Source of the DNA: Candidatus Moraniibacteriota bacterium
GTDB taxonomy: Bacteria; Patescibacteriota; Minisyncoccia; Moranbacterales; UBA1568
NCBI GenBank assembly: GCA_043743535.1
Contig: JAYTWI010000020.1
Coordinates: 10,039 to 74,038, forward strand
Direction of reading: 5' to 3'
DNA: 64,000 nt
The first letter of the stretch is position 1, and each line of letters starts with the position of its first letter. A program made the translations under genes and the position numbers. Below the pieces are notes generated by a model. The model worked only from the letters and a program-made list of their open reading frames with translations, was not told the origin of the DNA and searched no databases. Shown here piece after piece: positions 1 through 48,179 of the stretch.

Positions 1-959
1 TTGCCAAGCAGGCAGGAGTAAGGGCATGTGAACAGGTCATTACCGGGGACAAGATGAGTCACTGGACAGAAAAAGAATACGACGAACACACCAAACAATA
101 CACGATTTTCGCCCGCATCGTGCCGGAACAAAAAGAAAAAATTATCGCCGCCCTGAAAAAAGACGGTTTCACCGCTATGGTAGGTGATGGCGCCAACGAC
201 GCCCTCGCGATCAAAAAAGCCGACCTGGGCATCGCTATGTTCGAAGGCGCCCCCGCCACCAGAAAGCTCGCCTCCATCGTTCTTACAAATAACAGTTTTA
301 CCGCACTGCCGGGCGGCGTCACACTGGCCGACAGTATCATCAAAAACGCTGAGATTTTCGCCAGCCTCTTTTTAGGATCAGCCCTGTTCACCGGCCTTTT
401 ATTTGTCGCCGTCAGTTGTGTGGGATATCCTTTCCCACTCACCCCGCTCAATATCACTCTCATCAACTACTTCACTGTGGGCTTCCCTGGTATTCTCGTT
501 TCCTACTGGACCCTGTGGCCAGCCGAAGAAGTGCTCGCTCCGAGTACACCGGGATTTCTCCATAAAGTCGCTCCCTTCATGATTGCCTCGGCCATTCTCG
601 AGGCACTGGCCGTCTTCCTGCTCTTTGTCTTGAGTCCCGCCACGATGAAAGCAACTTCGTCGAATTTGTGGGTAGTGGTCGGTTCCGTTTTGGTTGGCTA
701 CGTCTTTTTTCTCTTCACCCCGCGTGTCTACCGCGGCGCTCTTTCCTCTGTCCAAAGAAGAGACCTCGTCATTCTTACACTCGTTGAATTCGCCTTCTTC
801 TTTCTCATCTTTCACTTCTCCCCATTCCTCCATTTTTTTGAAATTCTCGGTTCCACTGCTACCCTTTCATCTTTCTCTTTCTTAGCGGTAATCCTCCTCT
901 TCGGGGTGATCCAAGCGACGCTCGCCTGGCGAAACACCCGCAAAGCCGCCACCCCATAA
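1..959 (+). CDS. P-type cation-transporting ATPase, C-terminal portion (5' end lies outside window)
   Basis: Reading frame is open from nt 3. ...VITGDK (P-type TGD motif) precedes the first ATG. GDGANDALAIKKADLGIAM hinge motif, then C-terminal TM helices. Confidence 0.8.
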   Translation, partial: AKQAGVRACEQVITGDKMSHWTEKEYDEHTKQYTIFARIVPEQKEKIIAALKKDGFTAMVGDGANDALAIKKADLGIAMFEGAPATRKLASIVLTNNSFTALPGGVTLADSIIKNAEIFASLFLGSALFTGLLFVAVSCVGYPFPLTPLNITLINYFTVGFPGILVSYWTLWPAEEVLAPSTPGFLHKVAPFMIASAILEALAVFLLFVLSPATMKATSSNLWVVVGSVLVGYVFFLFTPRVYRGALSSVQRRDLVILTLVEFAFFFLIFHFSPFLHFFEILGSTATLSSFSFLAVILLFGVIQATLAWRNTRKAATP

Positions 960-983: not shown

Positions 984-1715
984 TTGTTCATTCTGGTCAG
1001 TTCCAGTACCATAGAAACGAACTCTCTCCATATGAATTCTTTTTTCGCTCGTCATCACCACTATTGGCGACAATCACAATTTTCCCAGTCCGCACTGGTG
1101 GGCTTGGTCATGTTCGTAACGAGCCTCTACATCAATCGCGTAGCGAGCCTCTACGCCACCGCCCAAGCCAGTAACCCCGTAAGCGACCTCTTGCTCGACA
1201 ATCTGCCGGTAATGAACGTCGACTGGATTGTCAATGATATGGCGGTTCTTTTTGGTTTCTTTATGCTCTTTCTTATCCTGTGGCAACCACGGCGCATCCC
1301 TTTTGTATTCAAAAGCGTAGCCCTCTTCATCACCGTGCGAGCAGGCTTTATCGTCTTTACTCATCTAGCCCCATTTCCGGATCGTATTTACCTTGACCCC
1401 GACGATATTTTTCGCACCCTGACGTACGGCGGAGACTATTTCTTCTCCGGTCATTCTGGTATGCCCTATCTCTTCGCCCTCATTTACTGGCAGGAAAAAT
1501 GGGTGCGTTACCTGTGCCTCGGCGGAGCCGTCCTTCTGGGAGCTGGTGTCATCTTGGGTCACCTCCATTACTCGATCGATGTCTTCGCGGCCTTCTTCAT
1601 CACCTACGGTATCTTCGCGATGGCTCAGCGCTTCTTCTCCTACGCCTACCACGTCTTCTCCGAACAAGAGCCTATTCCGCCACAGGAAGAGTCTTTCAAA
1701 AATCCTCTCATGTAA
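984..1715 (+). CDS. PAP2_C / sphingomyelin-synthase-like integral membrane protein (putative)
   Basis: Multi-TM protein. FFSGHSG and HLHYSIDV resemble the SGH / HYxxDV motifs of PAP2_C phosphotransferases. The start codon could be further downstream. Confidence 0.45.
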   Translation: MFILVSSSTIETNSLHMNSFFARHHHYWRQSQFSQSALVGLVMFVTSLYINRVASLYATAQASNPVSDLLLDNLPVMNVDWIVNDMAVLFGFFMLFLILWQPRRIPFVFKSVALFITVRAGFIVFTHLAPFPDRIYLDPDDIFRTLTYGGDYFFSGHSGMPYLFALIYWQEKWVRYLCLGGAVLLGAGVILGHLHYSIDVFAAFFITYGIFAMAQRFFSYAYHVFSEQEPIPPQEESFKNPLM

Positions 1716-1743: not shown

Positions 1744-1817
1744 ATCCACCTGATTTTACCAGCACTCGCTCGGAAACAAAAGTGCACTTTTGTTTCACTC
1801 GCTTCGTTTGGTAATAA
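1744..1817. repeat. 74-nt intergenic repeat element, copy A (inverted copy at 50628..50704; 72/74 identical)
   Basis: Direct comparison with the reverse complement of 50628..50704. Core is a perfect 24-nt palindrome, GAAACAAAAGTGCACTTTTGTTTC. Confidence 0.8.
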
Positions 1818-1864: not shown

Positions 1865-2680
1865 CTACAGTCCGTACGAAACGAAGTAATCAATCTTGGC
1901 TGCTTTCTTCACCCCTTCTACCCAGGCCTTGGCCTCGGTAGAAAATTTCTGACCCTTCAACTGCTCACGCACCTGGCTCCGCAGATCATCAGAACTCATA
2001 CCCTTCTGTGGCAGCGTCTTATTATCCTTGAGATAGGCAGTCACTTCATCTTCGGTGACGGTTGTCTTATCAGCCAAGAGGAGTTCTAATTCCTTCTGGA
2101 TCAATATCTGTTCTCGCAATTCAGATTCTGTCATCCCCTGCTGAGCGAGCGCCTGATCCAAGGTACCACCCTGGCCAGCTACCTGAGTCTCAATTTTTTT
2201 GATTTCAGCATCGATCACGGTATTCTTCACGACAATTTTGTTCTTCTCTATTTCCGTGGCAATCAGTTTTTTGGTAATCATAGTTTCGAGCACCTGCTTG
2301 CCAGACTGTTTCTCCAATTCTTGGATTATACTCAAACGGCCAATCGGACTACCGTTGACCATGGCCACTACCACCAGTCCCTTATTCGAATAGGCTAGCG
2401 CCAAAAGTAAAACCACAATAGCCACTCCCGCCACTTGAAAAAACTTCTTGTTATTCATTTTCTTCAACAATGGCAAAAGACTGGGTTTCATACCAGTACG
2501 CTCTCTTTCTACGATCGGCCGGTCTTTTGCTTCCGTATTCCCCACAAGCACCACTGGCGCTGGTGTTTCAACTGTCTTTTGTACCTGTGGTACTATGATA
2601 GTCTTTTCTGATGCAAGCACCGCGTTCACTTCATCTATCCCTCCTGTAGATTCTTCCTTTTTCGGCAGTTCATTTTCCAT
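1865..2680 (-). CDS. membrane-anchored SurA-N-terminal-domain (PpiD/SurA-like) chaperone-like protein
   Basis: N-terminal TM segment (FFQVAGVAIVVLLLALAY) followed by a SurA_N-like helical region (…QVREQLKGQKFSTEAKAWVEGVKKAAKIDYF). Confidence 0.5.
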   Translation of the reverse strand: MENELPKKEESTGGIDEVNAVLASEKTIIVPQVQKTVETPAPVVLVGNTEAKDRPIVERERTGMKPSLLPLLKKMNNKKFFQVAGVAIVVLLLALAYSNKGLVVVAMVNGSPIGRLSIIQELEKQSGKQVLETMITKKLIATEIEKNKIVVKNTVIDAEIKKIETQVAGQGGTLDQALAQQGMTESELREQILIQKELELLLADKTTVTEDEVTAYLKDNKTLPQKGMSSDDLRSQVREQLKGQKFSTEAKAWVEGVKKAAKIDYFVSYGL

Positions 2681-3745: not shown

Positions 3746-6223
3746 CTAGAGAATCTTCAGTCCCAGAGTGCAGGTGCCCACCAGTCCCGTGAGTATTCCT
3801 CCTACCACGGTACTGATGCGGTTACCCGAAGAGATAGTGGTGGGTGAACCAATCAGTGTCCCCGTTTTGGTACTGTTGAGCGATCCAGAAAGATCGATGG
3901 CTGAACTGAGCTGACTAGTACCAGCCCCAGGGGCATCCGAAGCCGTATCCACACTCACCTGGAAGGTACCGAGTAAACCAGCTGCTACAGAATACGAACA
4001 CTTGGCGCTCGTCAACTGATAGCTCCTATCCGCCACAAAGATAGCTTGCGTTAACACCGTAGCCAAAAGTGGCACTTGGATAAAGAGGGTCTGTGGGATC
4101 TTGTTCCCACCGACCGTGAGACTATCAGCCGTTGTAACCGCCAGCGTCTTCCCGGATGCAACCGTTGTTGTCCCATTCAGAGAAACTGCTCCCGTACCAG
4201 TCGCTAGTGTTCCTGAAGAGGCGGACTGATCTATGTTGCCGGAAGTAAGCGTCACACCTGTGACACCAGTGAGTGCTCCAGCAGCCGAGAGATTAAGAGT
4301 GGGAGAGGTCAGAAAATTATTCATCCCAGTCCCAAAGGTCAGGCCATTGAAAGTATTGCCACCAACGGCTGATACCGTTCCGAAAGAAATCCCAGTGAGA
4401 GTGTTCGTCCCACCAGATGTCCCCGTCAAGTCAAGTGTTATGCCTTTGACCGCATTCGTACCACTACTCCCGCTATTAGTGAGAGCGATGGTATGGGCGG
4501 TTCCGGTACTAGCAGAAAATGTCTGACTCAAAACCCCATCGCCACTCGTCAGCAGTACATCTTTGTTCGCTGCAATAGTCGTATCACCGTTGAGTGAGAT
4601 GGCACCAGTCCCCGTAGAGAATGTTCCGCTACCAACAATAGCCACATTGCCCGATCCTTGGGTATAGCCCGTGATGCCGGACAGGGCACCGCTCGTAGAA
4701 ACATCTAGTCCGGTAGAGTCCACTTGGAGGGCGCCTGTACTATTCCCCAATGTGAGCGCATTACCCGCTCCACTAGCTAAAATAGTAGCGCCCGAAGAAG
4801 TAAGTGAAGTAAAGATACTGGCTGCCGGACTGGTCCCGCCAATATTGATACCATTAATGGTGCCTCCATTAGCAGTCAGCGTGCCAGCGGTGATAGCGTT
4901 TGTCACATTCGAGAGTGTGAGAGCGGTCGCCGTGTTTGAACCACGATTGGCAACTGCATTCAGGGTGTCTGCTTCTGTTGCCGTCACTGTCACAACACCA
5001 CCGGATGCACCGATCGCATTGATACCCCCTGCTGCTACCGTCACGCTGCCGGTCTGACCGTTGAGAGCCGTCACGCCAGAATTGGTAATACTGATAGTGC
5101 CCAAACCATTAGAAATGCCAACCCCCGTCCCAGCACTGAGAACAGACAGGGCATAACCCGATCCATTGCCGATAAGCATCTGTCCATTGGTGGGAATAGT
5201 AGTGACACCGGTACCACCACTGCCAACGGGGAGCGCACTAATGCCGCTGATACTGCCACCCGTGATAGTCACACTGCCGGCGTTTTGCACAGCCAAGGTT
5301 CCAAGAGCGAGATTGGTTCGTGCTGTGGCCGCATTGGTCAGATCTGACAGGTTATTGGTTGATACCAAATCCCCTGTCCCGCCCCCACCCAAATAACTGG
5401 TAATATTACTACTAGTCACCAGCGTTCCTGAATTACCGGACAACGTAAAAGTCGCATCAGTAGAGAGCGTCCCGATATCAAGCGTCGCATAATGTGTATC
5501 ACTAGCGTCTTTTATTTTAAGGCTACTCCTCGCATCATCCAAAACGATGTTGTAGCCACCACCCTGCACCCAATCACTCGAAAGGCTTCCCAGACTTACC
5601 TCGGCCGTAGCACCCTCTCCCTGATTACCCGAAATATCAATCCCACTACCACCCACGGTTTTTTTGACATAGGCACCCGTTGTTTGTGATCCGAGTTTCA
5701 CTGCTCCGGTCTCGATCTCGGCATTTGATACCGTTTGTCCAATCAGGGATATCTGATTATTTTGTCGCAGCAGAGTGAGTAGGCGAGTTTGCTCGTCAGC
5801 TGTGAGATTAATTACCGTTCCTGAAACATCTCGAGTCAAAAGATCAGTTGGTGTTGTATAGAAATTCTGAGTGACTTCGGTCGTGTTATTCTCGATGACA
5901 CTTTTTTTGGTGATGATGTTTCCTTTAGCAGCGCCGTTCGTCACTGTCGATAAAGAACCAGGCGCGCCGCTGCCAGTGCTCTTGGTTCCTGAAGAAAAAG
6001 TTCCTTGTACTTGAGAAAAGGGAATGGTCCACTCTGCCACTGGAATCAGCCTGGTTTCATCTTGCAAAGACCGCTCCGTACCGGAAAAGAGCGGGCTCGT
6101 ATCGGTCTGAATAAGTGCACGGTCGAATACTGGCTGAATCGGCGCCGCAAGTGCGGTGCTACTAAAAAACGTAACAGTAAGCACCGCTCCAAGAAAAAGA
6201 AGTCCTCCGTATTTCTTTTTCAT
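3746..6223 (-). CDS. secreted Gly/Thr/Ser-rich repeat protein (beta-helix/adhesin-like surface protein)
   Basis: Sec signal peptide MKKKYGGLLFLGAVLTVTFFSSTALA. About 800 aa of low-complexity G/T/S/N/A repeats (…GTGVT…, …TLTGISFGTV…). Confidence 0.7.
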   Translation of the reverse strand: MKKKYGGLLFLGAVLTVTFFSSTALAAPIQPVFDRALIQTDTSPLFSGTERSLQDETRLIPVAEWTIPFSQVQGTFSSGTKSTGSGAPGSLSTVTNGAAKGNIITKKSVIENNTTEVTQNFYTTPTDLLTRDVSGTVINLTADEQTRLLTLLRQNNQISLIGQTVSNAEIETGAVKLGSQTTGAYVKKTVGGSGIDISGNQGEGATAEVSLGSLSSDWVQGGGYNIVLDDARSSLKIKDASDTHYATLDIGTLSTDATFTLSGNSGTLVTSSNITSYLGGGGTGDLVSTNNLSDLTNAATARTNLALGTLAVQNAGSVTITGGSISGISALPVGSGGTGVTTIPTNGQMLIGNGSGYALSVLSAGTGVGISNGLGTISITNSGVTALNGQTGSVTVAAGGINAIGASGGVVTVTATEADTLNAVANRGSNTATALTLSNVTNAITAGTLTANGGTINGINIGGTSPAASIFTSLTSSGATILASGAGNALTLGNSTGALQVDSTGLDVSTSGALSGITGYTQGSGNVAIVGSGTFSTGTGAISLNGDTTIAANKDVLLTSGDGVLSQTFSASTGTAHTIALTNSGSSGTNAVKGITLDLTGTSGGTNTLTGISFGTVSAVGGNTFNGLTFGTGMNNFLTSPTLNLSAAGALTGVTGVTLTSGNIDQSASSGTLATGTGAVSLNGTTTVASGKTLAVTTADSLTVGGNKIPQTLFIQVPLLATVLTQAIFVADRSYQLTSAKCSYSVAAGLLGTFQVSVDTASDAPGAGTSQLSSAIDLSGSLNSTKTGTLIGSPTTISSGNRISTVVGGILTGLVGTCTLGLKIL

Positions 6224-6690: not shown

Positions 6691-7110
6691 CTACTGCCCT
6701 GTCGACATTTTTGTTCCTGCACCAGTCGAAGGAGAACGAAGCACTACGCCAAAGTCAATAATTCGATCCTCACTCGGTCGGTAGAGGAGCGCCTTTTCTT
6801 CCCATACAATCAATTTGTCTCCATTTTCTGCATGCTGATAAAAAGTATCAGTCAAACGCAATTGCTCGGCGTCACTCACGGTCGCTACGGCCGGTACGGC
6901 ATCCCCCAGTAAAACATGTTTTGAAATTTTCTCTCGTATGGACCGAGCCTCCCTTTCGCCATCTGGCAATCGGTGACTTTGCCAGTAGTTATAACCTAGA
7001 TACAGTGTGCCAATAATCCAGAAGAAAAAAAGAATCTTTTTCCAAAAATGCTTCCTCGATACTTTCGGTACTGAGACAACATCATCTGTTTGTATTTCGA
7101 CCTCTGACAT
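6691..7110 (-). CDS. hypothetical membrane protein
   Basis: One TM (ILFFFWIIGTLYLGYNYW). No recognisable domain. Confidence 0.45.
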   Translation of the reverse strand: MSEVEIQTDDVVSVPKVSRKHFWKKILFFFWIIGTLYLGYNYWQSHRLPDGEREARSIREKISKHVLLGDAVPAVATVSDAEQLRLTDTFYQHAENGDKLIVWEEKALLYRPSEDRIIDFGVVLRSPSTGAGTKMSTGQ

Positions 7111-7337
7111 ATATGAAAAATGTCTTTGAAAGAATCAAATAATTTTATTCTAAATAAATTATACACTTTTTGAGATACTTATGCCAAGTACCGCTCACAT
7201 CAAACCGCATAGGCCGTTCACATTGGCTCATGATACTTGCTTGGTGCCTACTTCGTGTGCGCCCGGTGACTTCGGTGGTGTTCGTGATAGCTCTTGCTTT
7301 TGCCCCACCCCTCCCAGTGCGCGCACAAGCAGACTCC

Positions 7338-9038
7338 CTATGATTTTTCTTTATCATTTCCACCAACTAACTTTTTGACTGTGGCAATGACATTATCAAA
7401 TACAGAAGTTAGCTTTGTTTTTGCTTCTTCGGTTAACCGAGATGTATGCATTACAGAGTTTCGTAGTGGTTTGTAGGGTTTATCTTCGTCTTCCAAGATA
7501 TCGTCTTTAATTATTTTTGCTAAATCTATGTAATCCAAATACATCAGCAGATTCTCTTCAGCAATTCTGATTTGGATTGAAGTTCCTGCAATTTTCTTAT
7601 CCTCCTGCAAGCCCTTTTTTCTGCTTTCACCTTTACAAAATTGGCACCAGCTTTTTTCTGATTGATTGGGTCTGGTTGTGCAAGTATGTCCGTCACTTTG
7701 CTTTAAACAACTAATTGGAATTTTGCCAGAATTTTCAATATGCCTTCTTAGAAGATTTTCGGAAATGAAGCACTCAATATAACCTGTACTGTTAAAAGCT
7801 GCGTCATCTGTTAGTTCTGTAAGAAAGTCATCACCCCCCTCGCCAGAACCTCCCATGTATTCTTTTTTTACTTCGCGGTATAGAGACTTTGCTTTTTTAA
7901 ATTTTGAAGCTTTTTCAAGATTACCATCTTTACCACGCTCATCACGGAGATCATCCCATTGATCCATTATTGCAAGCACTGTCTTTTTCAACTCACCCAA
8001 AAATTCTTTGTAGAGTGGGTCATCAGCGAGTACACCTTCTCGACTGCTGATGAATCTATCTTTTCCATCCTTATCCAAGGCATCAAAATGAATTTGACCA
8101 TACAAGTAGTTTTCAGGAAGCTGAGCAGATGGAATATGTTTCAAAATATCCGTCTCCCTTACTCGACCATTTACAAATAAATCCACACCCACTTTTTCTC
8201 CCGTAGAGTGTATGTTCCTATCCTTTGGAAATTCAACGGATGCAATAAAACCAGTGATCTTGTCCGCCATTTTTACGGGCATAGTTTTGTATACCTTTTC
8301 GCAATACTTCTCTAGATATTCGTCCCCAGTCCAATTGTTGATATTCCAAACAAACTCTGTCTTTTCCGCAATACTTTTTAGTGATGCAAGCGTTATGAGT
8401 TCTCGGTCAAGATATATATTGAAATTTTTATCTACGAGTGAAAATCTGAAGTGAAGCGCTATAATTTTTTTCAAAAAATCATCCGTATTGTGAATACCGT
8501 CCTTTATGTTTTCAAAACAGATAATAGTTCCATTAGTATGCCCGTCCTTCATCTCTGTAAATAATGAATCATCCACTGACTCAAGAGAATAATCGTGAGA
8601 GGATCTATCATCTTTGATGGCTTCATCTAATCCAGAATTATCTATTGCACCACCAACGTAATCATCTTCTAATGATTTTCTTGAAATGATAGTTATTTTG
8701 TCCGCACAGGACAAAAGAGCCAACTTCCCAATGCCTTTATTTCCTATATAAGGACGGAGGTACGGTTCTGGAGAGCTCATGCCACCCTGTGTTCTCTTTG
8801 AATACCCGACTTTTAAGAATCTTTCTTTAAAATCGGTGGAGTCCATTCCGATACCATCATCTTTAATCCAGAATCTATTATTTTCTTTGTCGATTGAGAT
8901 CCAGACATTTTTGGCATTCGCATCCCATGCATTGGAAATCGCCTCACCAATGACAGTAGGAAAAGTCCTGTATAAATTTCTACCGAGGTGATTTAGTACA
9001 CTCAGAGATATATTAAATGTATATTTTTCACTTTCCAT
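7338..9038 (-). CDS. MORC-like GHKL (Bergerat-fold) ATPase with central zinc ribbon and C-terminal HEPN-like motif
   Basis: GHKL motifs: EAISNAWDA (motif I), DDGIGM (DxGxG), GNKGIGKLA (GxxGxG). Zinc ribbon C…HTC…CQFC. C-terminal LRNSVMH (RNxxxH) at nt 7446-7463. 11-nt overlap with the upstream MTase gene. Confidence 0.7.
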   Translation of the reverse strand: MESEKYTFNISLSVLNHLGRNLYRTFPTVIGEAISNAWDANAKNVWISIDKENNRFWIKDDGIGMDSTDFKERFLKVGYSKRTQGGMSSPEPYLRPYIGNKGIGKLALLSCADKITIISRKSLEDDYVGGAIDNSGLDEAIKDDRSSHDYSLESVDDSLFTEMKDGHTNGTIICFENIKDGIHNTDDFLKKIIALHFRFSLVDKNFNIYLDRELITLASLKSIAEKTEFVWNINNWTGDEYLEKYCEKVYKTMPVKMADKITGFIASVEFPKDRNIHSTGEKVGVDLFVNGRVRETDILKHIPSAQLPENYLYGQIHFDALDKDGKDRFISSREGVLADDPLYKEFLGELKKTVLAIMDQWDDLRDERGKDGNLEKASKFKKAKSLYREVKKEYMGGSGEGGDDFLTELTDDAAFNSTGYIECFISENLLRRHIENSGKIPISCLKQSDGHTCTTRPNQSEKSWCQFCKGESRKKGLQEDKKIAGTSIQIRIAEENLLMYLDYIDLAKIIKDDILEDEDKPYKPLRNSVMHTSRLTEEAKTKLTSVFDNVIATVKKLVGGNDKEKS

Positions 9039-10074
9039 AGATTTCTAAGTGCTTTTTTATCTGTCTGCCAATCACAACCCCCAACTGAGGAGGAACTGCG
9101 TTACCAATATGCCTACTCAGTTTTGCACTAGGAAAATCCCCGAAATCATAATCAATAGGAAATGTCTGTAGTAATGCACCCTCACGTATTGAAAGTGCCC
9201 TGTTTTGTTCTGGATGTCCAAAACGTCCAGACCCATAACTTGTAAATTGCGTTGTGATTGTTGGTGACACGTCACCCCATCTCATTCGTCCATATACTGA
9301 AGTATATGTTTGCCCGCTATCTTTTTTGTAGCAGTCTGGCAATAGATTTTTATCCCAATCACGCCAAGTACCACCGGGTTTTGATTGAAGAATACGTTTC
9401 TTATTTATTGGCTCAAGCTTCTTTGCTTGGTGTAAATAATCCCTCTTTGATATTTCCCCCGCATCAATTCTCGGCAATTCACGAATAACGTCACCCACGG
9501 TAACATAATTATCCTTGGTATGCGTTTCTTTTGGTATTAAAATTTCGCCTAGTCTCGAAGCGAGCAAAATTAGACGGCTACGATTTTGTGGTATGCCGTA
9601 ATTTGGTGCATATACAACTTTCCAATCCACCTTATATCCAAGTTTTTTAAGTTTATTTACGAAGTTCTTAAATACATCTGTTGTCGTAACCCCACGAACG
9701 TTCTCCATTGAAACAATGTCTGGCTTAACAACTTTTATTCCACGGATAAAGTGATCAAGCAAGTTCCAGCGCTCATCCTTTGCATCTTTACGTAATTTAA
9801 AAGCATGAGAAGAAAAAGGTTGGCAGGGAGCACAGCCGACAAGCACCCGCACACTACCTTTTGAGTAAATTTTGTTTAACTCTTTAAAATCAAACTTCGA
9901 AATATCTGCTGATATAAACTTAGCTGCGTTGTTTTTCTCATACGCATAAGCGCACGACTCATCATTATCAAGACCAGCCAAGACTGATAATCCTGATTTT
10001 CTTAATCCGTATGTCAAACCACCTACTCCACTAAACAGATCAATGACTTCAATTTTTTTATCTTTTTTGCTCAT
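9028..10074 (-). CDS. DNA (cytosine-5)-methyltransferase (Dcm-type)
   Basis: Motif I DLFSGVGG, motif IV GCAPCQPFS, motif VI ENV, motif VIII QNRSR. Confidence 0.9.
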   Translation of the reverse strand: MSKKDKKIEVIDLFSGVGGLTYGLRKSGLSVLAGLDNDESCAYAYEKNNAAKFISADISKFDFKELNKIYSKGSVRVLVGCAPCQPFSSHAFKLRKDAKDERWNLLDHFIRGIKVVKPDIVSMENVRGVTTTDVFKNFVNKLKKLGYKVDWKVVYAPNYGIPQNRSRLILLASRLGEILIPKETHTKDNYVTVGDVIRELPRIDAGEISKRDYLHQAKKLEPINKKRILQSKPGGTWRDWDKNLLPDCYKKDSGQTYTSVYGRMRWGDVSPTITTQFTSYGSGRFGHPEQNRALSIREGALLQTFPIDYDFGDFPSAKLSRHIGNAVPPQLGVVIGRQIKKHLEIYGK

Positions 10075-10112
10075 GTGTCTTGTTTTTTAATTATACAACA
10101 TCGCAACATTTT

Positions 10113-11216
10113 TTATTTCCCGGACTTCGTTCGATTATCCTGCTTGCACAACATCTGGCAATTTTCTGCGGTGGTTTTTCCACCTTCGTGCCATGGATTG
10201 ATATGGTCGGCTTCCATTTCACTCAACTCAAAACTTTCCCCGCATTTCGTACAGATTCCTTTTTGTCTTTCGTATGATTCGCGCTTCATTTTGTCGTTGA
10301 AAGCGCGTATTGAGAGATGTCTTTCTTGTTTAGTGAAAAGAAAGGGATAGATACCAGACTTCTTCGTTACGTCATCGTCCTGCATCATTTTTGCGACCTC
10401 AATTTCTAGCTTTTCAGCATTCTGCTTCTTATCTTTAAATTGATTGTACAATTCACCCCAATTCACATTCGCCATTTCTTTGCGATGGTTAGAGAACGCC
10501 TTACGCACCCACGCTACAACATTTTGGAAATACTCCCACAGTTCGTCAGCTTTTTTATCATGCTGATGTTTCGCCATGTAATTAGCTACTTCACCACTAT
10601 TGATCCATGAAAGTGCCGTTTCCAAGTATTCTTGGCGGATTGGTGAACCCGTAAGCAACGCACCGCCGTCATTTGCCAAAAGGTAAGCAGCGCAATTTGA
10701 TTTACTAAATTTGAGTTTTGCGTCAGAGAGCCATGAGCCAGTATAAACAGCGTTGCGAAGTTCTTGATCGGTCAATTTTTCACCAGCGATATTGATAATC
10801 TTAAACCAATCAAGTTTCTCCTTGTCCGTACCTTCGCAGAAGTAGACCATCAATTCATAATCAAGAATCTGCTCCTGTTCCTCTTTGGTGAGATTGTGGA
10901 ACATCGCAAGGCGACCATTAAAATCCACCGAAAAATCACCGTTTGCAAATTGCCCAATACTGATTGTTCTTTGCTGCCCGTCCAGTACCTCGAAGCTATC
11001 TTCAGCAGTTTTTATCCAATACATTACGTTGAGCGGGAATCCTTTCTTGACGGTATCAATAACCGCGTCGCGCTGTTTGTCTTTATAAACAAACTCTCGT
11101 TGATATTTTGGACGGACATTAAGTTTCCCGCCGTAGGCAACAACACCTTCCTCGGCACTGTCTTTATAGCCTTCGACCACCTCACGGATTTTTATTTTAT
11201 GTAGTTCGATTTTCAT
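10113..11216 (-). CDS. DUF262 (ParB/GmrS-like)::HNH nuclease fusion (GmrSD/type-IV-restriction-like)
   Basis: N-terminal KYQREFVY…LDGQQR (DUF262 signature). C-terminal CTKCGES…ADHINPWHEGGKTTAENCQMLCKQDN (HNH with Zn-ligand Cys). Confidence 0.85.
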   Translation of the reverse strand: MKIELHKIKIREVVEGYKDSAEEGVVAYGGKLNVRPKYQREFVYKDKQRDAVIDTVKKGFPLNVMYWIKTAEDSFEVLDGQQRTISIGQFANGDFSVDFNGRLAMFHNLTKEEQEQILDYELMVYFCEGTDKEKLDWFKIINIAGEKLTDQELRNAVYTGSWLSDAKLKFSKSNCAAYLLANDGGALLTGSPIRQEYLETALSWINSGEVANYMAKHQHDKKADELWEYFQNVVAWVRKAFSNHRKEMANVNWGELYNQFKDKKQNAEKLEIEVAKMMQDDDVTKKSGIYPFLFTKQERHLSIRAFNDKMKRESYERQKGICTKCGESFELSEMEADHINPWHEGGKTTAENCQMLCKQDNRTKSGK

Positions 11217-11217
11217 A

Positions 11218-12321
11218 TTATTTTTTAGTTTTGATTAACAAACGAGTATACGTAGATTTAAGTTTTCCATTAACTTTAATCACGGTACCTCTATTCAAAT
11301 CGTTATATTCTGGTGAATCTTTTTGTGTGTACAACTTAGTCCGATACTCATAGTTAGGGTCTCTATTATCTGACATTCCCAAAATTTCAAATTGATTTGG
11401 GTTATATTTATCGAGGAAAGTTATTGGAACGCCCATTACACGCTTATAATCCATTGGAATTTCAGAAACTTTTGAGACTTCTATCGCTCCATAGTTGTCA
11501 TATTGAGGAAATTCTTTAGGTGAGTATTTTTTATAGAGCGTTAATAATTCATGTCGTTTGGCTACATCAAGATTTGTAAACCAACCAATATTACCAAATT
11601 TCCTGATCGTTTTATCCGGCTGCATGAATTCTTTCAATCTGCCATACCCAGGCCATAATTTATTTTCTTGAACTAATTTAAAAATGTCTTGATACTTTCT
11701 TGCATTGTCATTTCCGACAATCAGAAATTTCTTTTTATATTTAACTAACTGAGCAACGTATTCACGAAAGAGCGAGAATGGCGGATTTGTTACCACAATG
11801 TCAGCTTGCCGCAGTAGTTCAATACTTTCTTCGCTTCGAAAGTCTCCCTCGTCTTTGAGCGGAATCCATTCATTGTTTTTATTCGCCTTGAGTTGCTCGG
11901 CAATATCACGTAGATCAAATGCACCATCGCCGTCTATATCCGACACATCATTGATAATAAATTTGTTGGCGGTTACCTTTGGTCTACCCTTTGGTTCCGC
12001 TGGCTTACTCACAACCTTATCTTCGTAGCCAGGAAGAAGTGATGGCTGCAATACAAGCTCTGTATTGGCAATCCGTGAGCGCTTGTAACTCGTAGCGATG
12101 AGCCTTTTTAATCCAAGTTCTTTGAAGTTACTCGCAAAGTATTTGAAGAAATTACTCTCGAATGGGTCATCACAGTTGCAATACACTACTTTTCCACGAA
12201 ACTGCTCTTTGTAGTGCTTTACTTCTTTTTCAATATCAGAAAGCTGAGTATAGAACTCGTCGTTCTTTACCTTGGCTGCTCGGTGTAAGTTTGAATTTGA
12301 AGACTCAGTTTTCATAATCAT
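11218..12321 (-). CDS. N6-adenine DNA methyltransferase, EcoRI-methylase-like family (putative)
   Basis: N-terminal DEFYTQ, VVYCNCDDP…NFFKYF, motif IV DIVVTNPPFSLFREY. From memory it resembles M.EcoRI-family proteins; not verified. 1-nt gap to the downstream gene. Confidence 0.75.
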   Translation of the reverse strand: MIMKTESSNSNLHRAAKVKNDEFYTQLSDIEKEVKHYKEQFRGKVVYCNCDDPFESNFFKYFASNFKELGLKRLIATSYKRSRIANTELVLQPSLLPGYEDKVVSKPAEPKGRPKVTANKFIINDVSDIDGDGAFDLRDIAEQLKANKNNEWIPLKDEGDFRSEESIELLRQADIVVTNPPFSLFREYVAQLVKYKKKFLIVGNDNARKYQDIFKLVQENKLWPGYGRLKEFMQPDKTIRKFGNIGWFTNLDVAKRHELLTLYKKYSPKEFPQYDNYGAIEVSKVSEIPMDYKRVMGVPITFLDKYNPNQFEILGMSDNRDPNYEYRTKLYTQKDSPEYNDLNRGTVIKVNGKLKSTYTRLLIKTKK

Positions 12322-12464
12322 TTCTGTATCAAATCATCAACTTTGACTTTTCAGCTCTGATTTTCTTACCAAACTTGTCTTGCTTTGATTTAAGTTCGAA
12401 ATCTTCAGAACATTTTGAGAAGCACTTGTGTAATTTACCGCAAGCTTTTCATCAAAAGTAAGTC

Positions 12465-13319
12465 TCATGTATTTTTTGACTTTAGCTTTTGTGACTTTCG
12501 CGGTTCTGGTAAATAATTTTCACGAGAAGATATTTTCTTACCGCTCTTGAGCTCAAGTTGCCTCCGAGCATCTCCCGCGATATCGCCACCCGCTTTTGCA
12601 ACAGATTTATTTTCGAGAAAACCTTGTGCGTTTTTGTTGCGAGCGATTTCTGTCGTTGAAGCTTCCCCGAGCATGGTGAAAATGAGCTCGAGATCATTCA
12701 TGTGGTCACGCAAATTTTCCCGTTTCAATCCTTTGAGTTTATGGTATTGACTCGGAGTCATCCCAAATGTTGCCTTTGAAATTTCGGCGGTGAGGATTGC
12801 ATATTCTTGTCCTTCTTTTACTCCACGTTTTTTCCATTCACCTGCAAGTGTCTCGCGTACCTCAATACCACGCATTCGTTTTTCAATCCATGCTTCAGAA
12901 TATCCCTTAGCTTTATATATTGCTCGCGTGCGCTTTGTGGCAAGTTCTGGATTTTCTATCTCTTCAATTCGCTCATAACCAACTCGTGCCAGCCAGCGTT
13001 TGAAAGGTTCGGCTTTAGGAGAAGAAATTGATTGTATTATACGAAAAATTCCTTCTGTATTTGCACAGTTTAGTTTTTGTGGACCTCCTGCCGTATCTAC
13101 GGAAAGGGGGGTGGCAATTTGCCCCCACCCTTCAGAGAGTTCTTTGTCACGCCTACGCATGTCCTTAATGTATCCTTTTGGTTGAACAGAGTCTGTTAAA
13201 ACTGCCACGACATCTTCAATAACAAACCACCATTCGTTTTTATAAAGAGCCTTGCGCACTTCCTTCTTTTGAAAAATTGCGATTTTGGTAATGGTTTGGT
13301 TTTGTGTTGTCATAATCAT
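12465..13319 (-). CDS. Bro-N domain protein (DinD / phage anti-repressor-like)
   Basis: N-terminus …NEWWFVIEDVVAVLTDSVQPKGYIKDMRRRDKEL… fits the Bro-N fold pattern. Charged C-terminal half. Confidence 0.55.
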   Translation of the reverse strand: MIMTTQNQTITKIAIFQKKEVRKALYKNEWWFVIEDVVAVLTDSVQPKGYIKDMRRRDKELSEGWGQIATPLSVDTAGGPQKLNCANTEGIFRIIQSISSPKAEPFKRWLARVGYERIEEIENPELATKRTRAIYKAKGYSEAWIEKRMRGIEVRETLAGEWKKRGVKEGQEYAILTAEISKATFGMTPSQYHKLKGLKRENLRDHMNDLELIFTMLGEASTTEIARNKNAQGFLENKSVAKAGGDIAGDARRQLELKSGKKISSRENYLPEPRKSQKLKSKNT

Positions 13320-13465
13320 TTCAAAAGTTGATCTACGCTCACCCCAAGTACTTTCGAGACCTTTTCCATTGTGCTCAGTGTAAGATTTTGTTTGCCGTTC
13401 TCAACATTACTGATATATGCCCTATCTAAACCTAACGCTCGGGGAAATTTGAATTCCGAATTTTG

Positions 13466-13484
13466 GCGGAAGAGGAGGGATTCG
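13466..13484. repeat. 19-nt direct repeat of the tRNA-Ser 3' end (possible att remnant)
   Basis: gcggaagaggagggattcg is identical to 13634..13652, the T-arm/acceptor 3' half of the tRNA. Confidence 0.6.
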
Positions 13485-13634
13485 GTCACGAATATTTTTT
13501 GTGCCGACGCCCAAAAAATTTCTCGACCTCGCCTCGCGGCCAGACGTGCTCGTCTGGCATCGCTGTGGCCTTCTCATCCCTCTCGAAAGCCAAGCAGTTG
13601 GCTTTCTCTCTTGCCTCGTTCACTACGTTCACTG

Positions 13635-13721
13635 CGGAAGAGGAGGGATTCGAACCCTCGGTACGGTTTCCCGCACGCTTGCTTTCCAAGCAAGTACCTT
13701 AAGCCGCTCGGCCACCCTTCC
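13635..13721 (-). tRNA. tRNA-Ser (anticodon GGA)
   Basis: Hand-folded cloverleaf. Acceptor GGAAGGG/CTCTTCC, anticodon stem CTTGC/GCAAG with loop TTGGAAA, long variable arm, T-arm GAGGG-TTCGAAT-CCCTC, discriminator G. CCA not encoded. Confidence 0.85.
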
Positions 13722-13755
13722 CTGTTGTGAAGCCTTCCTTCACAAGAGTTTTATC

Positions 13756-19497: not shown

Positions 19498-20754
19498 CTA
19501 CGCCGCCAACTTTTTCAGTTCTTCCTCTATAACTTCCCGCTCATGCCAAGGAATCATGCGGTCGCGGAAAGCTATCGTCTCCTCCGCTCCCTTGCCGGTG
19601 ATGAGCACGATATCACCAATTTCTGCGAGCGCTAGAGCTTTGGCGATAGCCGTCCGCCGGTCAAAGATGCGAAAATATGTTTTGTCTTTTTTCTTACCCA
19701 CTCCTTGTTCGATATCATCGATGATCTGTTCAGGGTCTTCGTAGTACGGATCTTCATTGGTGAGGATAATGATATCGGCGTAACTAGAGGCGATCTCGCC
19801 CATTTGTGGGCGCTTACCACGATCACGTTCACCACAGGCTCCGAAGAGGTGAATAATTTTCGATCCAGGAATCTTCAGAGGCAGGATCGAGGCATAGAGC
19901 TTTTCGAAGGCATCCGGCGTCACTGCGTAATCGATGATGATATCGGCATCGATGTGATTTGGTACCAGCTCCATCCGTCCGGGCACACCCGTCACGCTTT
20001 CCAATGCCTCCTTAGCCACGGCAAAATCAATATCGAGCAAACGTGCTACGCCTAAGGAAGCCAAAGCGTTTTCGATATTAAACAACCCGGGCAACCTGAG
20101 ATAAAAATGCGTGCCATCAACGATAAACTCCGTCCCTTTGAAATCGAGAGAAATATCAGAAGCAAAAAGATGAGCGGCATGATCTTTGACACTATAGAGA
20201 AGTGATGGCTTCTCGGCCGGGGCACAGAAAAATTCTGGGTCTTCCATGTCCAAATTGACCACCGTCTGTTTGGCACGTCGGAAAAGTTTGCACTTGGCCT
20301 CGCGATACCGGGCCATCGTCTCGTGATAGTCCAAATGCTCGCGCGTCACATTGGTCATAACGGCGATAGCGTAGGGTATCCCCCACACTCGGTTCTGGTC
20401 GAGGGCGTGCGATGAAGTTTCGAGCACGGCGTATTGACATCCAGAGGCCACAGCCTCTCGCAAAAATTGTTGCAACCGCCAGGGCGATGGCGTGGTGAAT
20501 TTGGAGGCATTGACCCAATGCTTTTCGCCGATTTGAAAATTAATAGTTGAGGCCATAGCCACCTTTTTTCCGGCCCGTTCCAAAATACGGGTGATAAATT
20601 GTGTGGTAGTGGTCTTGCCATTGGTGCCCGTCACTCCGATTACTTGCAAACGACGAGCGGGGGAACCATACCAAATACTGGCTAAAACAGCGTTCGCCAG
20701 ATGATAGTAATTCTTCACCAAGCGTGGTGTCAGTTGTGAGAGGAAACGTTTCAT
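19498..20754 (-). CDS. Mur ligase family protein (MurE-like, lacks N-terminal domain)
   Basis: GVTGTNGKTTTTQFI…TTPSPWRLQQ…ETSSHAL…TNVTREHLDYH. Start overlaps the stop of the upstream RT gene (ATGA). Confidence 0.75.
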   Translation of the reverse strand: MKRFLSQLTPRLVKNYYHLANAVLASIWYGSPARRLQVIGVTGTNGKTTTTQFITRILERAGKKVAMASTINFQIGEKHWVNASKFTTPSPWRLQQFLREAVASGCQYAVLETSSHALDQNRVWGIPYAIAVMTNVTREHLDYHETMARYREAKCKLFRRAKQTVVNLDMEDPEFFCAPAEKPSLLYSVKDHAAHLFASDISLDFKGTEFIVDGTHFYLRLPGLFNIENALASLGVARLLDIDFAVAKEALESVTGVPGRMELVPNHIDADIIIDYAVTPDAFEKLYASILPLKIPGSKIIHLFGACGERDRGKRPQMGEIASSYADIIILTNEDPYYEDPEQIIDDIEQGVGKKKDKTYFRIFDRRTAIAKALALAEIGDIVLITGKGAEETIAFRDRMIPWHEREVIEEELKKLAA

Positions 20755-21842
20755 AGTGTTTTCATAGTAGGATTTTCAACATCCCATTTTTGAACAATCT
20801 CACTCATTAAACTATACCCATTCCCATGTGAAAGCAAGCCCACATACGACGCTAGCACCTCTTTCTTGCCCTTTGTTTCTACCAATCTCCGTAGCATACG
20901 TTTCTTGGTGACCGTCCGTAAGACTTGGTGTCTGGAGAAATGCACCCACCCCAGGAAATCCACTCCTGAGGACAGCGTCTTGATCGAGACCTTGTCCGGA
21001 TGAAGCTTCAGTCTCAGATTGAGTTGTAAAAACGCGTCTACCAATGTAAGTATCTTCTTCAATGCTTCTTTGTCCTGTGAAAATATAACAAAATCATCGG
21101 CATAGCGGATATAGTATTTAGCTTTCACCTGGTGCTTCATGAACTGGTCGAATTCATTGAGATAAATATTGATGAGGAGTTGCGAAGTCAGATTACCCAG
21201 AGGTAAACCAATACCTGTCATGCTAGGGTCAAAGCTACCAATAACCTTCTCGAGAAGCCACAAGACGTCCACGTCAAAGATACGTCGCTTCAAAATACTC
21301 ATGAGCACTGTCTGGTTGACAGAGGCAAAGCATTTTCGAATATCACCTTTGAGTATCCAAACAGTCTTGGTATGATTTTTGGAAGTCCGCCTGCCAAGGA
21401 CCTCGAAGCGACTCAGGGCTTTATACACACCCTTCTTTTTCCGACAAGAATATGAATCCGCAATAAAGGTATCGTCAAAAAAAGGATACAGAATACGGTA
21501 AATAGCATGGTGCAAGAGACGATCCCTGACCGAGGCCTTGTGAATATGGCGGGGCTTGGGGTCGGAGATGCGAAAAGCGTGGTAAGAACTGTGCGTGTAG
21601 GTTTTATTTGTCAGGTCACCATGCAAAGCAAAAATATTATCCATCAGGTGCAGTTCAAACTCTTGTACATCTTGCTTCTTGGTCTTTCCTCTCACGAATT
21701 CTTTCCAGGCTTCGAGGAGATTTTCGGGAGAGATGGTATGATGATAAGAAAGTTCTAACTTCTTTTTTTCTCTGTATGCTTCATCAAATTCCCCCCCCCC
21801 GAAGCTCTTGCCCCTTTTACAGAAGCTAAAGGAAGGATACAC
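20751..21842 (-). CDS. diversity-generating retroelement reverse transcriptase
   Basis: N-terminal …ENLLEAW…VRDRLLHHAIY… (DGR-RT hallmark). RT motifs ILKGDIRKCF, GLPLGNLTSQLLINIYLNEFD, YIRYADDFVIF (YADD), LHPDKVSI. Adjacent TR/VR pair. Confidence 0.9.
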   Translation of the reverse strand: MYPSFSFCKRGKSFGGGEFDEAYREKKKLELSYHHTISPENLLEAWKEFVRGKTKKQDVQEFELHLMDNIFALHGDLTNKTYTHSSYHAFRISDPKPRHIHKASVRDRLLHHAIYRILYPFFDDTFIADSYSCRKKKGVYKALSRFEVLGRRTSKNHTKTVWILKGDIRKCFASVNQTVLMSILKRRIFDVDVLWLLEKVIGSFDPSMTGIGLPLGNLTSQLLINIYLNEFDQFMKHQVKAKYYIRYADDFVIFSQDKEALKKILTLVDAFLQLNLRLKLHPDKVSIKTLSSGVDFLGWVHFSRHQVLRTVTKKRMLRRLVETKGKKEVLASYVGLLSHGNGYSLMSEIVQKWDVENPTMKTL

Positions 21843-22161
21843 ATTGTGGTATAGTTATATCTTTACTGTGCCAAAAATTCATCGACATTCCCTTGGTCAG
21901 AAAATTGATAGCCTTTTTGTAGAAACCATAGAGGCAGTTGCAGCGGCCAGCTTTTCTTCGGGTACGGACAAACTTCCCTACATACGACACTCCATCAAAA
22001 AAATGGATACTCTCAAACTTCTCTTGACGATTTTGTGGGAATTGAAGTCGCTGGATAACAAAAAGTATCTCGCTCTGTCAGTAAAGCTCGATGAAATAGG
22101 CAGGATGCTTGGTGGTTGGCAGGGACAAGTCTTGAAAAAACAAAACTCCTCACATGCATGA
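21808..22161 (+). CDS. Avd-like accessory protein (four-helix-bundle / 23S-rRNA-IVS-protein family), putative
   Basis: …VPKIHRHSLGQKIDS…YIRHSIKKMDTLKLLLTILWELKSL…LSVKLDEIGRMLGGW follows the Avd/IVS-protein pattern. Opposite strand to the RT; the called 5' ends overlap by 35 nt. Confidence 0.6.
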   Translation: MPLLQKLKEGYTLWYSYIFTVPKIHRHSLGQKIDSLFVETIEAVAAASFSSGTDKLPYIRHSIKKMDTLKLLLTILWELKSLDNKKYLALSVKLDEIGRMLGGWQGQVLKKQNSSHA

Positions 22162-22181
22162 GAGGAGAAAAGAAGAGAGTA

Positions 22182-22305
22182 GCGACGCGCAGAGCCGGGT
22201 TGTTGTCGTTCCAGTCATTGTCGAGCCAGTTCCAGTTGATCACCACCTTGTCGCCGTTCTCGACGAGATACGGAACGTAGAGGTTGCCATCGCGGTTCTG
22301 CACAA
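22182..22305 (-). repeat. DGR template repeat (TR)
   Basis: 124 bp aligned to 22653..22776. 14 mismatches, every one at a plus-strand T (a minus-strand A) of this copy. Asn (AAC) codons are enriched. Confidence 0.9.
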
Positions 22306-22646
22306 ATATACACAGCGCCTTCCATACCACCACCCCTCGAGTACTCTTGGGGTTGTATCGTATTCGGTATCTTAAATACCATAGCACTGTATACCAAGTA
22401 TCTTCATTTTTAGTGAAGTGTCTACATACACCACTCTACCCGAAACCGTAATCGAAGGTATTCTCAATGTATGGATACTGGATTCGGCCGCAGACAGTCG
22501 TAACCATCTGCAAGATGCGCCTACTACCACTGTCAGTATATCAAAGGGTGAAAAAATGAAAACCCCGCACTACCGTTCGGTAAAATGCGGGGTCGAAGGA
22601 CTAAGAATCAAGGGTCTAAAAGACCCAAAGTACAAAGTCCGAAGTA

Positions 22647-23312
22647 CTAACTTGCGACGCGCAGAGCCGGGTTGAGGCCGTCCCAGTCAAAGCCGAGCCA
22701 GTACCAGTAGATCACCACCTTGCCGCCGCGCTCGACGAGATACGGAACGTAGAGGCGGCCATCGCGGTTCTGCACAACATCTTTCCAGGCAAAGACTGCC
22801 TTGCCACGGAAGTGTTGACGGAAGACTTCGATGCCGAGCTTCTGGATCTCCTCCAGATCGCGCAGTGCGAGACACGTCGGGAGAATATCACTCTCCCTGA
22901 TGTACTGGTACAGCGCCTTGCCACCAATGACGCCGCCGTTCTCTTGCGTAGGGTGAAGCCAGGGCTTCACCCGATCGAAGCGGTATTCAACCGTGTCCGT
23001 ACGGTCAAACTCCTGATGCAGACGCTTCTTCAGCCATTCTGGGTATATCCCCTTGATGGCGTAGTTGACACGGAAGGTCTGATGCATGGTCTCGCGAGCA
23101 ACTTCGACGATTTTCTTGTCGAGCGGACAGAGACCGAGTATCCCGCGGAATTCATCCCGATCCACTTCTTTGATGTTGCCATCGAAGAGATCAGACAACA
23201 GACCGGAGGTGTAAAGCAACTGGAGCTGTTCCAATTGCGGATCCTTCTGCCCAACAAATGCAAGCAGGTGGGTGGCTTGCTTAAACGATCCATCACTCAT
23301 GGTATTCTCCAT
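22647..23312 (-). CDS. DGR target protein with C-terminal variable region (CLec/FGE-like fold presumed)
   Basis: C-terminus …VQNRDGRLYVPYLVERGGKVVIYWYWLGFDWDGLNPALRVAS matches the translated TR (…NWNWLDNDWNDNNPALRVA). No signal peptide. Confidence 0.85.
   Translation of the reverse strand: MENTMSDGSFKQATHLLAFVGQKDPQLEQLQLLYTSGLLSDLFDGNIKEVDRDEFRGILGLCPLDKKIVEVARETMHQTFRVNYAIKGIYPEWLKKRLHQEFDRTDTVEYRFDRVKPWLHPTQENGGVIGGKALYQYIRESDILPTCLALRDLEEIQKLGIEVFRQHFRGKAVFAWKDVVQNRDGRLYVPYLVERGGKVVIYWYWLGFDWDGLNPALRVAS
22653..22776 (-). repeat. DGR variable repeat (VR)
   Basis: Partner of the TR. Differs only at positions corresponding to template adenines. Confidence 0.9.
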
Positions 23313-48042: not shown

Positions 48043-48179
48043 GAACTGTAAATAATAGGGTCATATTACTCAGTATTTATACCGTAGTATGTACATTTTT
48101 TGCTTTATTAATTGACTTTTTTGTCTCTATTTACTATAATTTATTTGTCGACCTTTTTACCGACATAATTATAAATAGC

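Follow-up and report, generated by a model that had tools for sequence, protein, structure and literature searches.

A family of small, modular, hairpin-forming repeats in Candidatus Moranbacteria

CPR genomes are tiny and streamlined, and little is known of their non-coding and mobile DNA. In a 64-kb stretch of a Candidatus Moraniibacteriota genome (the window, by which we mean the whole stretch of DNA that was analysed), a palindromic sequence occurs twice in inverted orientation, each time between genes. An earlier note on this DNA described the pair and offered three candidate identities, namely a MITE- or REP-like element, a small RNA, and a palindromic protein-binding site. The locus raises the question of whether the sequence is a repeat that moves, a transcript that folds, or a site that is bound.

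Results

Two copies of an 84-nt unit adjoin intrinsic terminators

The inverted pair described previously, nucleotides 1744 to 1817 and the reverse complement of nucleotides 50628 to 50704, is real, and its members differ at 2 of 74 positions, with an A/C difference in the palindrome centre and a C/T difference in the 3′ arm. The true span is longer than 74 nt, however. A repeat search of the window returns inverted-repeat arms of 84 nt and 95% identity, located at nucleotides 1734 to 1817 on the forward strand (copy W1) and 50628 to 50711 on the reverse strand (copy W2), with a spacing of 48.8 kb. A covariance model of the element (R1, built from 13 copies) scores W1 at 106.4 bits (E 2.7e-23) and W2 at 93.4 bits (E 4.2e-20), and an unfiltered covariance-model search of the 64-kb window recovers W1 and W2 with no further weak copies.

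The 24-nt core was proposed to be a perfect palindrome. This holds for W1, where nucleotides 1773 to 1796 read GAAACAAAAG-TGCA-CTTTTGTTTC (core sequence GAAACAAAAGTGCACTTTTGTTTC), whereas the core of W2 at nucleotides 50649 to 50672 carries one mismatch in the central four positions (forward strand GAAACAAAAG-GGCA-CTTTTGTTTC). The core of the element is best written as GAAACAAAAG-NNNN-CTTTTGTTTC, and a search for this palindrome in dinucleotide shuffles of the window gave a match count of zero in 100 of 100 cases. The short direct repeat that had been noticed around the core, CACTCGCT(T)CG, is indeed found on both arms; it is weakly conserved in relatives and is partly base-paired in the extended hairpin described below.

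Both copies are flanked by convergent ORFs, as had been observed. W1 lies between a PAP2-family gene (984 to 1715, forward strand) and a SurA-like gene (1865 to 2680, reverse strand), in the 3′ region of the former and in sense orientation relative to it, with a terminator directly after the copy. W2 is antisense relative to yebC and is situated between the stop codon of this forward-strand gene (50624 to 50626) and a terminator common to the convergent gene, a 138-aa ORF on the reverse strand (50777 to 51193). The GC-rich terminators reported beside the two copies are present as G+C-rich hairpins followed by T-runs at approximately 1818 to 1847 and 50717 to 50757. The first, AAAAAGACCACCCAGAAGGATGGTCTTTTT (1818 to 1847), is a bidirectional intrinsic terminator as judged by its sequence and folds. 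The second, found after yebC by a terminator scan (50717 to 50757), is likewise bidirectional, is kept in all relatives examined, and marks the insertion point. Both terminators are context outside the repeat, and a sequence reading of the element led us to reject a terminator identity for the element itself.

Only spurious ORFs cross the unit, whose length is 84 to 190 nt across the family. Two of these, at 1546 to 1941 and 50135 to 50746, match each other only across the element, in agreement with the previous explanation of their similarity; the peptide that they have in common over the element is IHLILPALARKQKC.FVSLA.FGNK.

The element has fixed boundaries and two dissimilar hairpins

The boundaries are identical in every copy of the family, comprising (A)ATAAC on the left and GGTAATAA on the right, and the flanks beyond them are unrelated. 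In W1 these ends correspond to AATAAC at nucleotides 1734 to 1739 and GGTAATAA at 1810 to 1817 of the forward strand. The order from left to right is (A)ATAAC, a small hairpin, a GATTTTA linker, an imperfect hairpin of approximately 59 nt, and GGTAATAA. The small hairpin, which is recovered in folds and occupies nucleotides 1739 to 1752 of the forward strand in W1, reads CAGGT-ATCC-ACCTG in the window and CGGGT-ATTG-ACCCG in other copies, and shows A-U to G-C covariation at one pair. The long hairpin (1756 to 1814, forward strand) is supported by RNA and DNA folds and by pairing statistics. Its outer stem is formed by TTACCAG and TTTGGTAA (1756 to 1762 with 1808 to 1814, forward strand), and the TTACC/GGTAA portion is replaced by TTAAC/GTTAA in the family copies L059 and L021. 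Between the outer stem and the 10-bp inner stem (GAAACAAAAG/CTTTTGTTTC) lies a conserved, asymmetric internal loop with CACTCGCT(T)CG on each arm. The unpaired sequence of this loop is strongly conserved across species, and the tetraloop that closes the inner stem is variable (UGCA, UGCC, GAAA, UAAA, ACUA, or CAAA).

The two hairpins thus lie near both ends of the element, 1 to 3 nt from its boundaries. AATAA precedes the left end and terminates the right end, and this sequence (or ATAA/AATA) stands at both ends of all copies, identical each time. Terminal inverted repeats are absent, in that the first 20 nt are unrelated to the reverse complement of the last 20 nt; the inverted repeats of the element are internal.

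Several lines of evidence indicate that the hairpins have been maintained. In a 10-sequence alignment (A3), 93.8% of the cells assigned to stems are paired, versus 41 to 52% when partners are slid. Compensatory changes occur at three pairs, the clearest of which (C-G, 4; U-A, 3; U·G, 1) falls in the segments previously read as a direct repeat, although this covariation reflects few independent events. The invariance of the inner stem is due in part to the database search pattern, which demanded the stem. Changes from C-G to T-A and from A-T to G-C are present in this stem in three divergent units that were outside selection by the pattern (units B1 and B2 of L046 and the second copy of L003). 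Both strands fold far better than shuffles, either as DNA or as RNA. DNA folds have z values of −4.2 and −4.7 for W1 and of −2.6 to −3.0 for W2, and RNA folds of 116-nt windows have z values of −5.6 and −7.1 versus shuffles.

These data do not single out one strand as the functional one. The outer stem of the forward strand gains two G·U pairs, which would be A·C on the other strand, in 8 of the 9 distinct sequences, whereas the pairs of the small hairpin are kept better on the reverse strand (88.6% versus 81.8%), where alone the degenerate versions of this hairpin stay paired. When the element is read in reverse, its small hairpin and the TTATTTT that comes after it look like a terminator. 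No promoter is conserved upstream, the sequence being unrelated up to AATAAC in every copy.

Related copies occur in other Moranbacteria-type assemblies

Two scans for the pattern GAAACAAAAGNNNNCTTTTGTTTC, one of species-representative genomes and the other of metagenome contigs, yielded 62 loci, which were searched with model R1 and were also sorted by flanking sequence. Outside the window, the model recognises 12 family copies among them (63 to 114 bits), spread over at least seven other Moranbacteria-type assemblies. Two MAGs labelled Moranbacteria carry two copies each, nzgw503 (L005 and L011) and MFD09730.bin.1.17 (L008 and L010, at 2.7 and 26.3 kb of a 652-kb contig). The other copies are from CAYGEA01, which is labelled Bdellovibrionales (L003), from LLBZ01 (L059), and from the metagenomes C687J35174 (L029, L036, and L061), Ga0209542 (L015), Ga0172379 (L046), and Ga0247807 (L021, a divergent copy). 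Apart from paralogy of TrmB and P-type ATPase genes, there is no synteny between the window and the family loci. Copy number is low, with two copies in the 64-kb window and two exact-stem copies in the 652-kb contig, the latter 23.7 kb apart in direct orientation. It is also oddly alike, at two per judged genome, clustered within 24 to 49 kb.

The earlier note held that a chance duplication would be favored if only the two window copies existed and relatives were without them. A family does exist in other genomes, although the orthologous sites in close relatives are nevertheless empty. The literature on CPR/Patescibacteria repeats, MITEs, and non-coding RNAs yielded no description of the element, and we conclude that this family of Candidatus Moranbacteria (CPR) is real and previously undescribed.

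Searches of other collections gave no sign of the family. Viral contigs contain no match to the palindrome, and two flank patterns produced only chance matches there, none with the context of the element. Phage and plasmid collections hold no true match, with one chance match of 47 nt in a Salmonella usher gene. When the window and 11 family loci were compared with Rfam at the gathering score, which covers ribozymes, riboswitches, HEARO, and IS605-associated RNAs, only tRNAs were reported, and an E-value scan of nucleotides 1650 to 1900 gave only sub-threshold, terminator-driven matches.

Some loci that carry the search pattern are of other kinds. About 35 of 51 metagenome matches have the same 10-bp stem with flanks unlike those of the element, and we judged this group (Family B) to be unrelated. 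Its members lie within ORF-free inverted repeats of approximately 540 nt that are very abundant in coral-type metagenomes (L001, at 4688 to 5225 and 7327 to 7868, plus about 35 metagenome loci among L012 to L062), and they probably represent a repeat of a eukaryotic host. Other non-family loci among the 62 are coding sequences that match the pattern by chance. L048 (1216 to 1273), on a metagenome contig of 2 kb, is partly related to the hairpin (36 bits) and immediately precedes a tRNA gene.

Long forms carry additional hairpins at fixed positions

The copies fall into two size classes, the 84-nt short form of the window and a long form of approximately 190 nt with added hairpins, of which there are six examples (L005, L008, L010, L015, L029, and L036). 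The extra sequence of the long form, approximately 75 nt, is accommodated in the loop of the small hairpin and folds into two further hairpins. Their stems covary (CCATGG/CCATGG, CCAGGG/CCCTGG, and CCGCGG/CCGCGG), and their loops are YAAG, equivalent to CUUR on the other strand. In L008 and L015, a further hairpin of 26 to 30 nt is inserted after GATTTTAC, in the internal loop of the long hairpin; the motif of this insert, CCTCGATTCGAGTC.AAGCGGGC, is also found outside the element in L010.

Units can also be joined head to tail, and the joins in L010 and L046 are exactly at AATAA. The L046 locus (440 to 745, reverse strand) has the tandem order terminator, unit B, element A, terminator, unit B, where unit B (GAAATGAAA.../...TTTCATTTC) is related to the long hairpin but has diverged from it, and has the end GTAATA. 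A Bro-N gene and a parB-like gene are 0.7 to 1.6 kb away, the parB-like gene at 1.6 kb. L003 has, 95 nt from its first copy, a second and degenerate one that corresponds to the 3′ half of the element (3918 to 3963), with a small hairpin of its own added within the 5′ internal loop.

Orthologous sites in close relatives are empty

The closest named homologues of the window YebC are all from Candidatus Moranbacteria or Moraniibacteriota MAGs, and the relatives that we compared have YebC identities of 92% (L069), 87% (L070 to L072), 86% (L064 and L065), and 85% (L066 to L068). Only in the window do 84 nt intervene between the yebC stop codon and the terminator. In four related species the element is missing, and the homologous terminator (...AAGAAGCGTCGTAGGATTTCCCACGACGCTTTTT) is found 4 to 13 nt past the stop codon. 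The SurA-like/PAP2 locus of relatives is also without the element, and model R1 detects no copy in approximately 155 kb from close relatives. Given that the terminator is kept and the element missing in four related species, with no copy in the approximately 155 kb, this sequence comparison indicates that the element is an insertion, which at yebC lies between the stop codon and the terminator. The empty sites are too diverged for the junctions to be placed, and an AATAA duplicated on insertion is indistinguishable from an AATAA that belongs to the element.

Gene order between and around W1 and W2 is collinear with that of relatives that are without the element. As read from the genomes compared, a distribution that is sporadic in close relatives yet conserved in distant Moranbacteria is what a mobile or horizontally spreading sequence would show. 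Three short-read contigs from the window's own genome have an end within the element, as is expected of a repeat.

The element resembles several known repeat systems without matching any

The mosaic construction of the element resembles that of BOX, ERIC, and BIME sequences, whose features we take from general knowledge. ERIC sequences (also called IRU) are 127-nt imperfect palindromes of enterobacteria that are non-coding and have inverted-repeat ends. The element is like them in its size class, its long imperfect hairpin, its location in transcribed intergenic or 3′ regions, its lack of an adjacent transposase, its longer variants created by insertions at fixed internal sites, and a copy number that varies greatly between species. 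It differs in having no sequence similarity to ERIC, no inverted-repeat ends, a host in another clade (CPR), and an apparently much lower copy number. BOX elements of Streptococcus pneumoniae have the modular arrangement boxA-boxB(n)-boxC, and the mechanism that mobilises them is unknown. Here the likeness is in the mosaic of constant 5′ and 3′ modules with optional internal modules, the intergenic location, and the stable predicted structure, whereas the sequence is unrelated, the host belongs to another phylum, and far fewer copies of the element have been seen.

PATEs are palindrome-associated elements derived from IS200/IS605, with subterminal hairpins at both ends and insertion 3′ of a fixed tetra- or pentanucleotide. 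The REP/REPIN-RAYT systems and the PATEs share with the element a design based on hairpins rather than terminal inverted repeats, an extragenic position beside terminators, tandem joining of units, and a possible insertion at a fixed AATAA without a classical duplication. Unlike them, the element has two dissimilar hairpins, boundaries that nearly coincide with the feet of the hairpins, and a low copy number, and no Y1 transposase was seen at its loci (8 to 20 kb each). A textbook REP is rejected: GTAG, CGTC, CTAC, and GACG are all absent from the 84-nt unit, and the composite hairpin of approximately 59 nt is long and scarce, whereas REP/REPIN sequences are imperfect palindromes of 20 to 40 nt with a conserved GTAG or CGTC head, present in tens to hundreds per genome. 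Classical MITEs such as Correia and RUP are similar in being small, non-coding, polymorphic for insertion between relatives, and co-transcribed with their neighbours. The element is likewise small, non-coding, and present or absent at orthologous sites, but the terminal inverted repeats that define these MITEs are missing from it, so that a textbook MITE is rejected as well.

Two further comparisons were negative. Integron attC sites have complementary R′′/R′ boxes (consensus RYYYAAC...GTTRRRY) at their two ends, whereas the ends of the element, AATAAC and GGTAATAA, are not complementary and are off this consensus. TIGR arrays lie beside a Nop-domain Tas gene and are made of units in tandem, in which box C/D motifs flank variable spacers (PMC12045711). 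The units of the element occur singly, what would be their spacers are alike from copy to copy and from species to species, no neighbouring gene is Tas-like, and the CCA trinucleotide is not conserved (CCA, CCG, CCU, or ACG).

Discussion

A non-autonomous repeat is the favored reading

The element combines a family that crosses genomes, sharp boundaries, sites that are filled in one genome and empty in others, maintained hairpins, a lack of terminal inverted repeats, and a lack of any adjacent transposase. It looks like a mobile or duplicative insertion rather than a conserved gene or regulatory site. We assign a probability of roughly 0.55 to the reading in which the copies constitute a new family of small, non-coding, modular palindromic repeats that are non-autonomous, in the manner of REP, ERIC, and BOX. 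Their low copy number is unlike a proliferating MITE or REP and counts against that kind of element. Of the identities originally proposed, MITE/REP-like survives in the broad sense of a repeated non-coding hairpin insertion, whereas an independent small RNA and a protein-binding site are unlikely. No transposase or integrase was found among the window ORFs examined or adjoining any family locus (8 to 20 kb per locus), nor was any mobilising enzyme or autonomous partner found at the family loci. The neighbours of the copies are ordinary genes, often encoding membrane, metal, or redox proteins.

How might such a repeat move? The element may land in AATAA sequences, which would be frequent in the A-tracts beside bidirectional intrinsic terminators. 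Such a preference would explain why copies adjoin terminators, and W1, L010, L036/L015, L046, and L059 end directly at a terminator hairpin. In the IS200/IS605 and REP-RAYT systems, a folded single strand is mobilised in trans by an enzyme that recognises its hairpin. Because hairpins are present and terminal inverted repeats are absent, our best guess is that the element similarly moves as a folded single strand, acted on in trans by an HUH/Y1-style enzyme that recognises hairpins; this is the least certain step of the proposal and is put forward tentatively. Once situated between a stop codon and a terminator, the element is likely co-transcribed within the 3′ UTR, to which it would add a stable hairpin. 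The effect of the added hairpin is probably close to neutral, with a possible orientation-dependent influence on transcript stability or termination.

A more unusual form of movement, which we regard as doubtful, would make the element a CPR-specific module of structured nucleic acid with a transposition mechanism of its own. In one version, a single-stranded hairpin would target AATAA beside terminators and be moved by an as yet unrecognised enzyme; in the other, an RNA would be copied back into DNA by a resident reverse transcriptase, and the window does contain an active-looking diversity-generating retroelement. In either version recognition would be through the conserved internal loops, and function rather than decay might account for the low, paired copy number.

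Evidence bearing on functional RNA, binding-site, and paired-end explanations

The element might instead be a structured RNA module, either a small RNA or a cis-acting UTR element, that acts as a folded transcript, for instance in transcript stability or processing or as a sponge for a protein or an RNA, and that has spread by duplication and horizontal transfer. The folds that are much more stable than shuffles, the compensatory changes at three pairs, the conserved internal-loop sequence, and the addition of long-form sequence in loops, with its own covarying hairpins and tetraloops, are all consistent with such an RNA. So are the two forward-strand G·U pairs that make the outer stem longer in 8 of the 9 distinct sequences, and the forward 3′ end is often followed by a terminator. 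The forward strand matches the direction of local transcription at approximately 9 of 11 scorable loci, a bias that is not significant (binomial p ~0.07), and at W2 and L059 transcription runs the other way. The better pairing of the small hairpin on the reverse strand leaves no single functional strand, the covariation comprises few independent events, and no Rfam family matches. Moreover, a needed RNA would not usually be missing from the orthologous sites and from approximately 155 kb of close relatives. An independent small-RNA gene in particular appears unlikely because the upstream sequence is unrelated in every copy, up to AATAAC, and no promoter is shared. On balance, we consider the structured RNA module to be an unlikely but credible explanation.

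If the palindrome were instead a double-stranded site for a host protein, it could be parS-like and close to the origin or could serve as an operator for a TrmB-family or metal-responsive regulator. The palindrome has a variable centre, and TGTTTCAC at its right edge corresponds to one half of the canonical parS. Both copies are less than 60 kb from the origin (dnaN, dnaA, rnpA, and yidC at 58.8 to 63.1 kb), two copies lie within 24 kb in the 652-kb contig, a parB-like gene is 1.6 kb from the L046 copy, TrmB genes are near W2 and the L010 copy, and metal or redox genes are near several copies. The window also has no canonical parS of its own: the 16-bp palindrome TGTTNCACGTGAAACA is not matched there even when three mismatches are allowed, nor is it matched in the first 62 loci, and a canonical parS identity is rejected. 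However, the half-sites have an everted arrangement compared with parS, with 12 bp between them, and relatives that share the origin-region synteny are without a copy for approximately 10 kb on each side of yebC, a distance that reaches dnaA. Family loci share no synteny with the window, and positions at gene 3′ ends are wrong for operators. A simple double-stranded operator also seems unlikely from the sequence because the unit is 84 to 190 nt long and polar, with compensatory changes outside the palindrome and hairpin insertions in its loops. We therefore view a site of this kind as improbable. It is more improbable still, to the point of being scarcely credible, that W1 and W2 are paired functional ends, either recombination sites or the termini of a 49-kb invertible or mobile segment. 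They are inverted and 48.8 kb apart, and they enclose a restriction-modification island, a tRNA gene, and a diversity-generating retroelement; yet gene order is collinear with that of relatives without the element, GC skew does not change sign between the copies, the two copies of the 652-kb contig are in direct orientation, and no recombinase is adjacent.

Implications

On the favored reading, a non-autonomous hairpin repeat, the result as it stands is a useful annotation and no surprise. The family can serve to mark assembly breaks, given that short-read contigs of the source genome end in it, and to trace strain-level variation as well as horizontal exchange among Moranbacteria. It also offers a handle for finding an enzyme that moves hairpin DNA in these organisms. 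If the element acts as an RNA, it would be among very few structured non-coding RNAs specific to CPR.

Genomic setting of the window copies

The replication-origin region lies at the right end of the window (58856 to 63128), with dnaN (58856 to 60004), dnaA (60267 to 61679), rnpA, and yidC. GC skew is negative throughout until a sign change near 60 kb. A role of the element as an origin or terminus marker is rejected, the skew being uniformly negative between the copies and flipping only near dnaA at approximately 60 kb, and relatives with the origin synteny being without the element.

Between the copies lies a complete-looking diversity-generating retroelement (20751 to 23312, reverse strand). 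Its reverse transcriptase (20751 to 21842) matches RVT_1 (E 2e-24), and its 124-nt repeat is present as a template copy at 22182 to 22305 and as a variable copy at 22654 to 22777, at the 3′ end of ORF 22647 to 23312; all 14 of the 14 mismatches between the two are adenine in the template copy. A link between the element and this retroelement is rejected, in that the W1/W2 differences are not adenine-specific and the element is intergenic.

The region from 7100 to 13730, which adjoins a tRNA gene (13635 to 13721, reverse strand) and has a low GC content (39 to 41%), is probably a restriction-modification or defence island that was acquired. Its products are an EcoRI-type methylase, a GmrSD/HNH protein, a cytosine methylase, a HATPase_c_3 protein, and a Bro-N protein. 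Relative to some relatives, the window has two extra gene modules (47212 to 48911 and 50777 to 52165), each consisting of a hypothetical gene on the reverse strand and a TrmB-family regulator gene on the forward strand. One separates ruvB from a bPH_2 gene; the second, which separates yebC from ruvC, is shared by L069 to L072 and is missing from L064 to L068. A link between the element and the inserted TrmB modules is rejected, since L069 to L072 have the second module and not the element.

Genes for metal or redox membrane proteins are found by several copies, including ferric-reductase-like genes in L011 and L059, a gene for an HMA-DsbD-cupredoxin protein in L010, two heavy-metal P-type ATPase genes in L003, and a P-type ATPase gene together with the PAP2 gene at W1 (window nucleotides 3 to 1715). 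These neighbours may only reflect accessory regions that are often exchanged. Finally, tandem repeats of approximately 81 to 93 nt, with spacings of 117, 222, and 237 nt, are present at 37615 to 38388 inside a 1540-aa ORF (36039 to 40661), and a short-read contig of the source genome apparently breaks near them.
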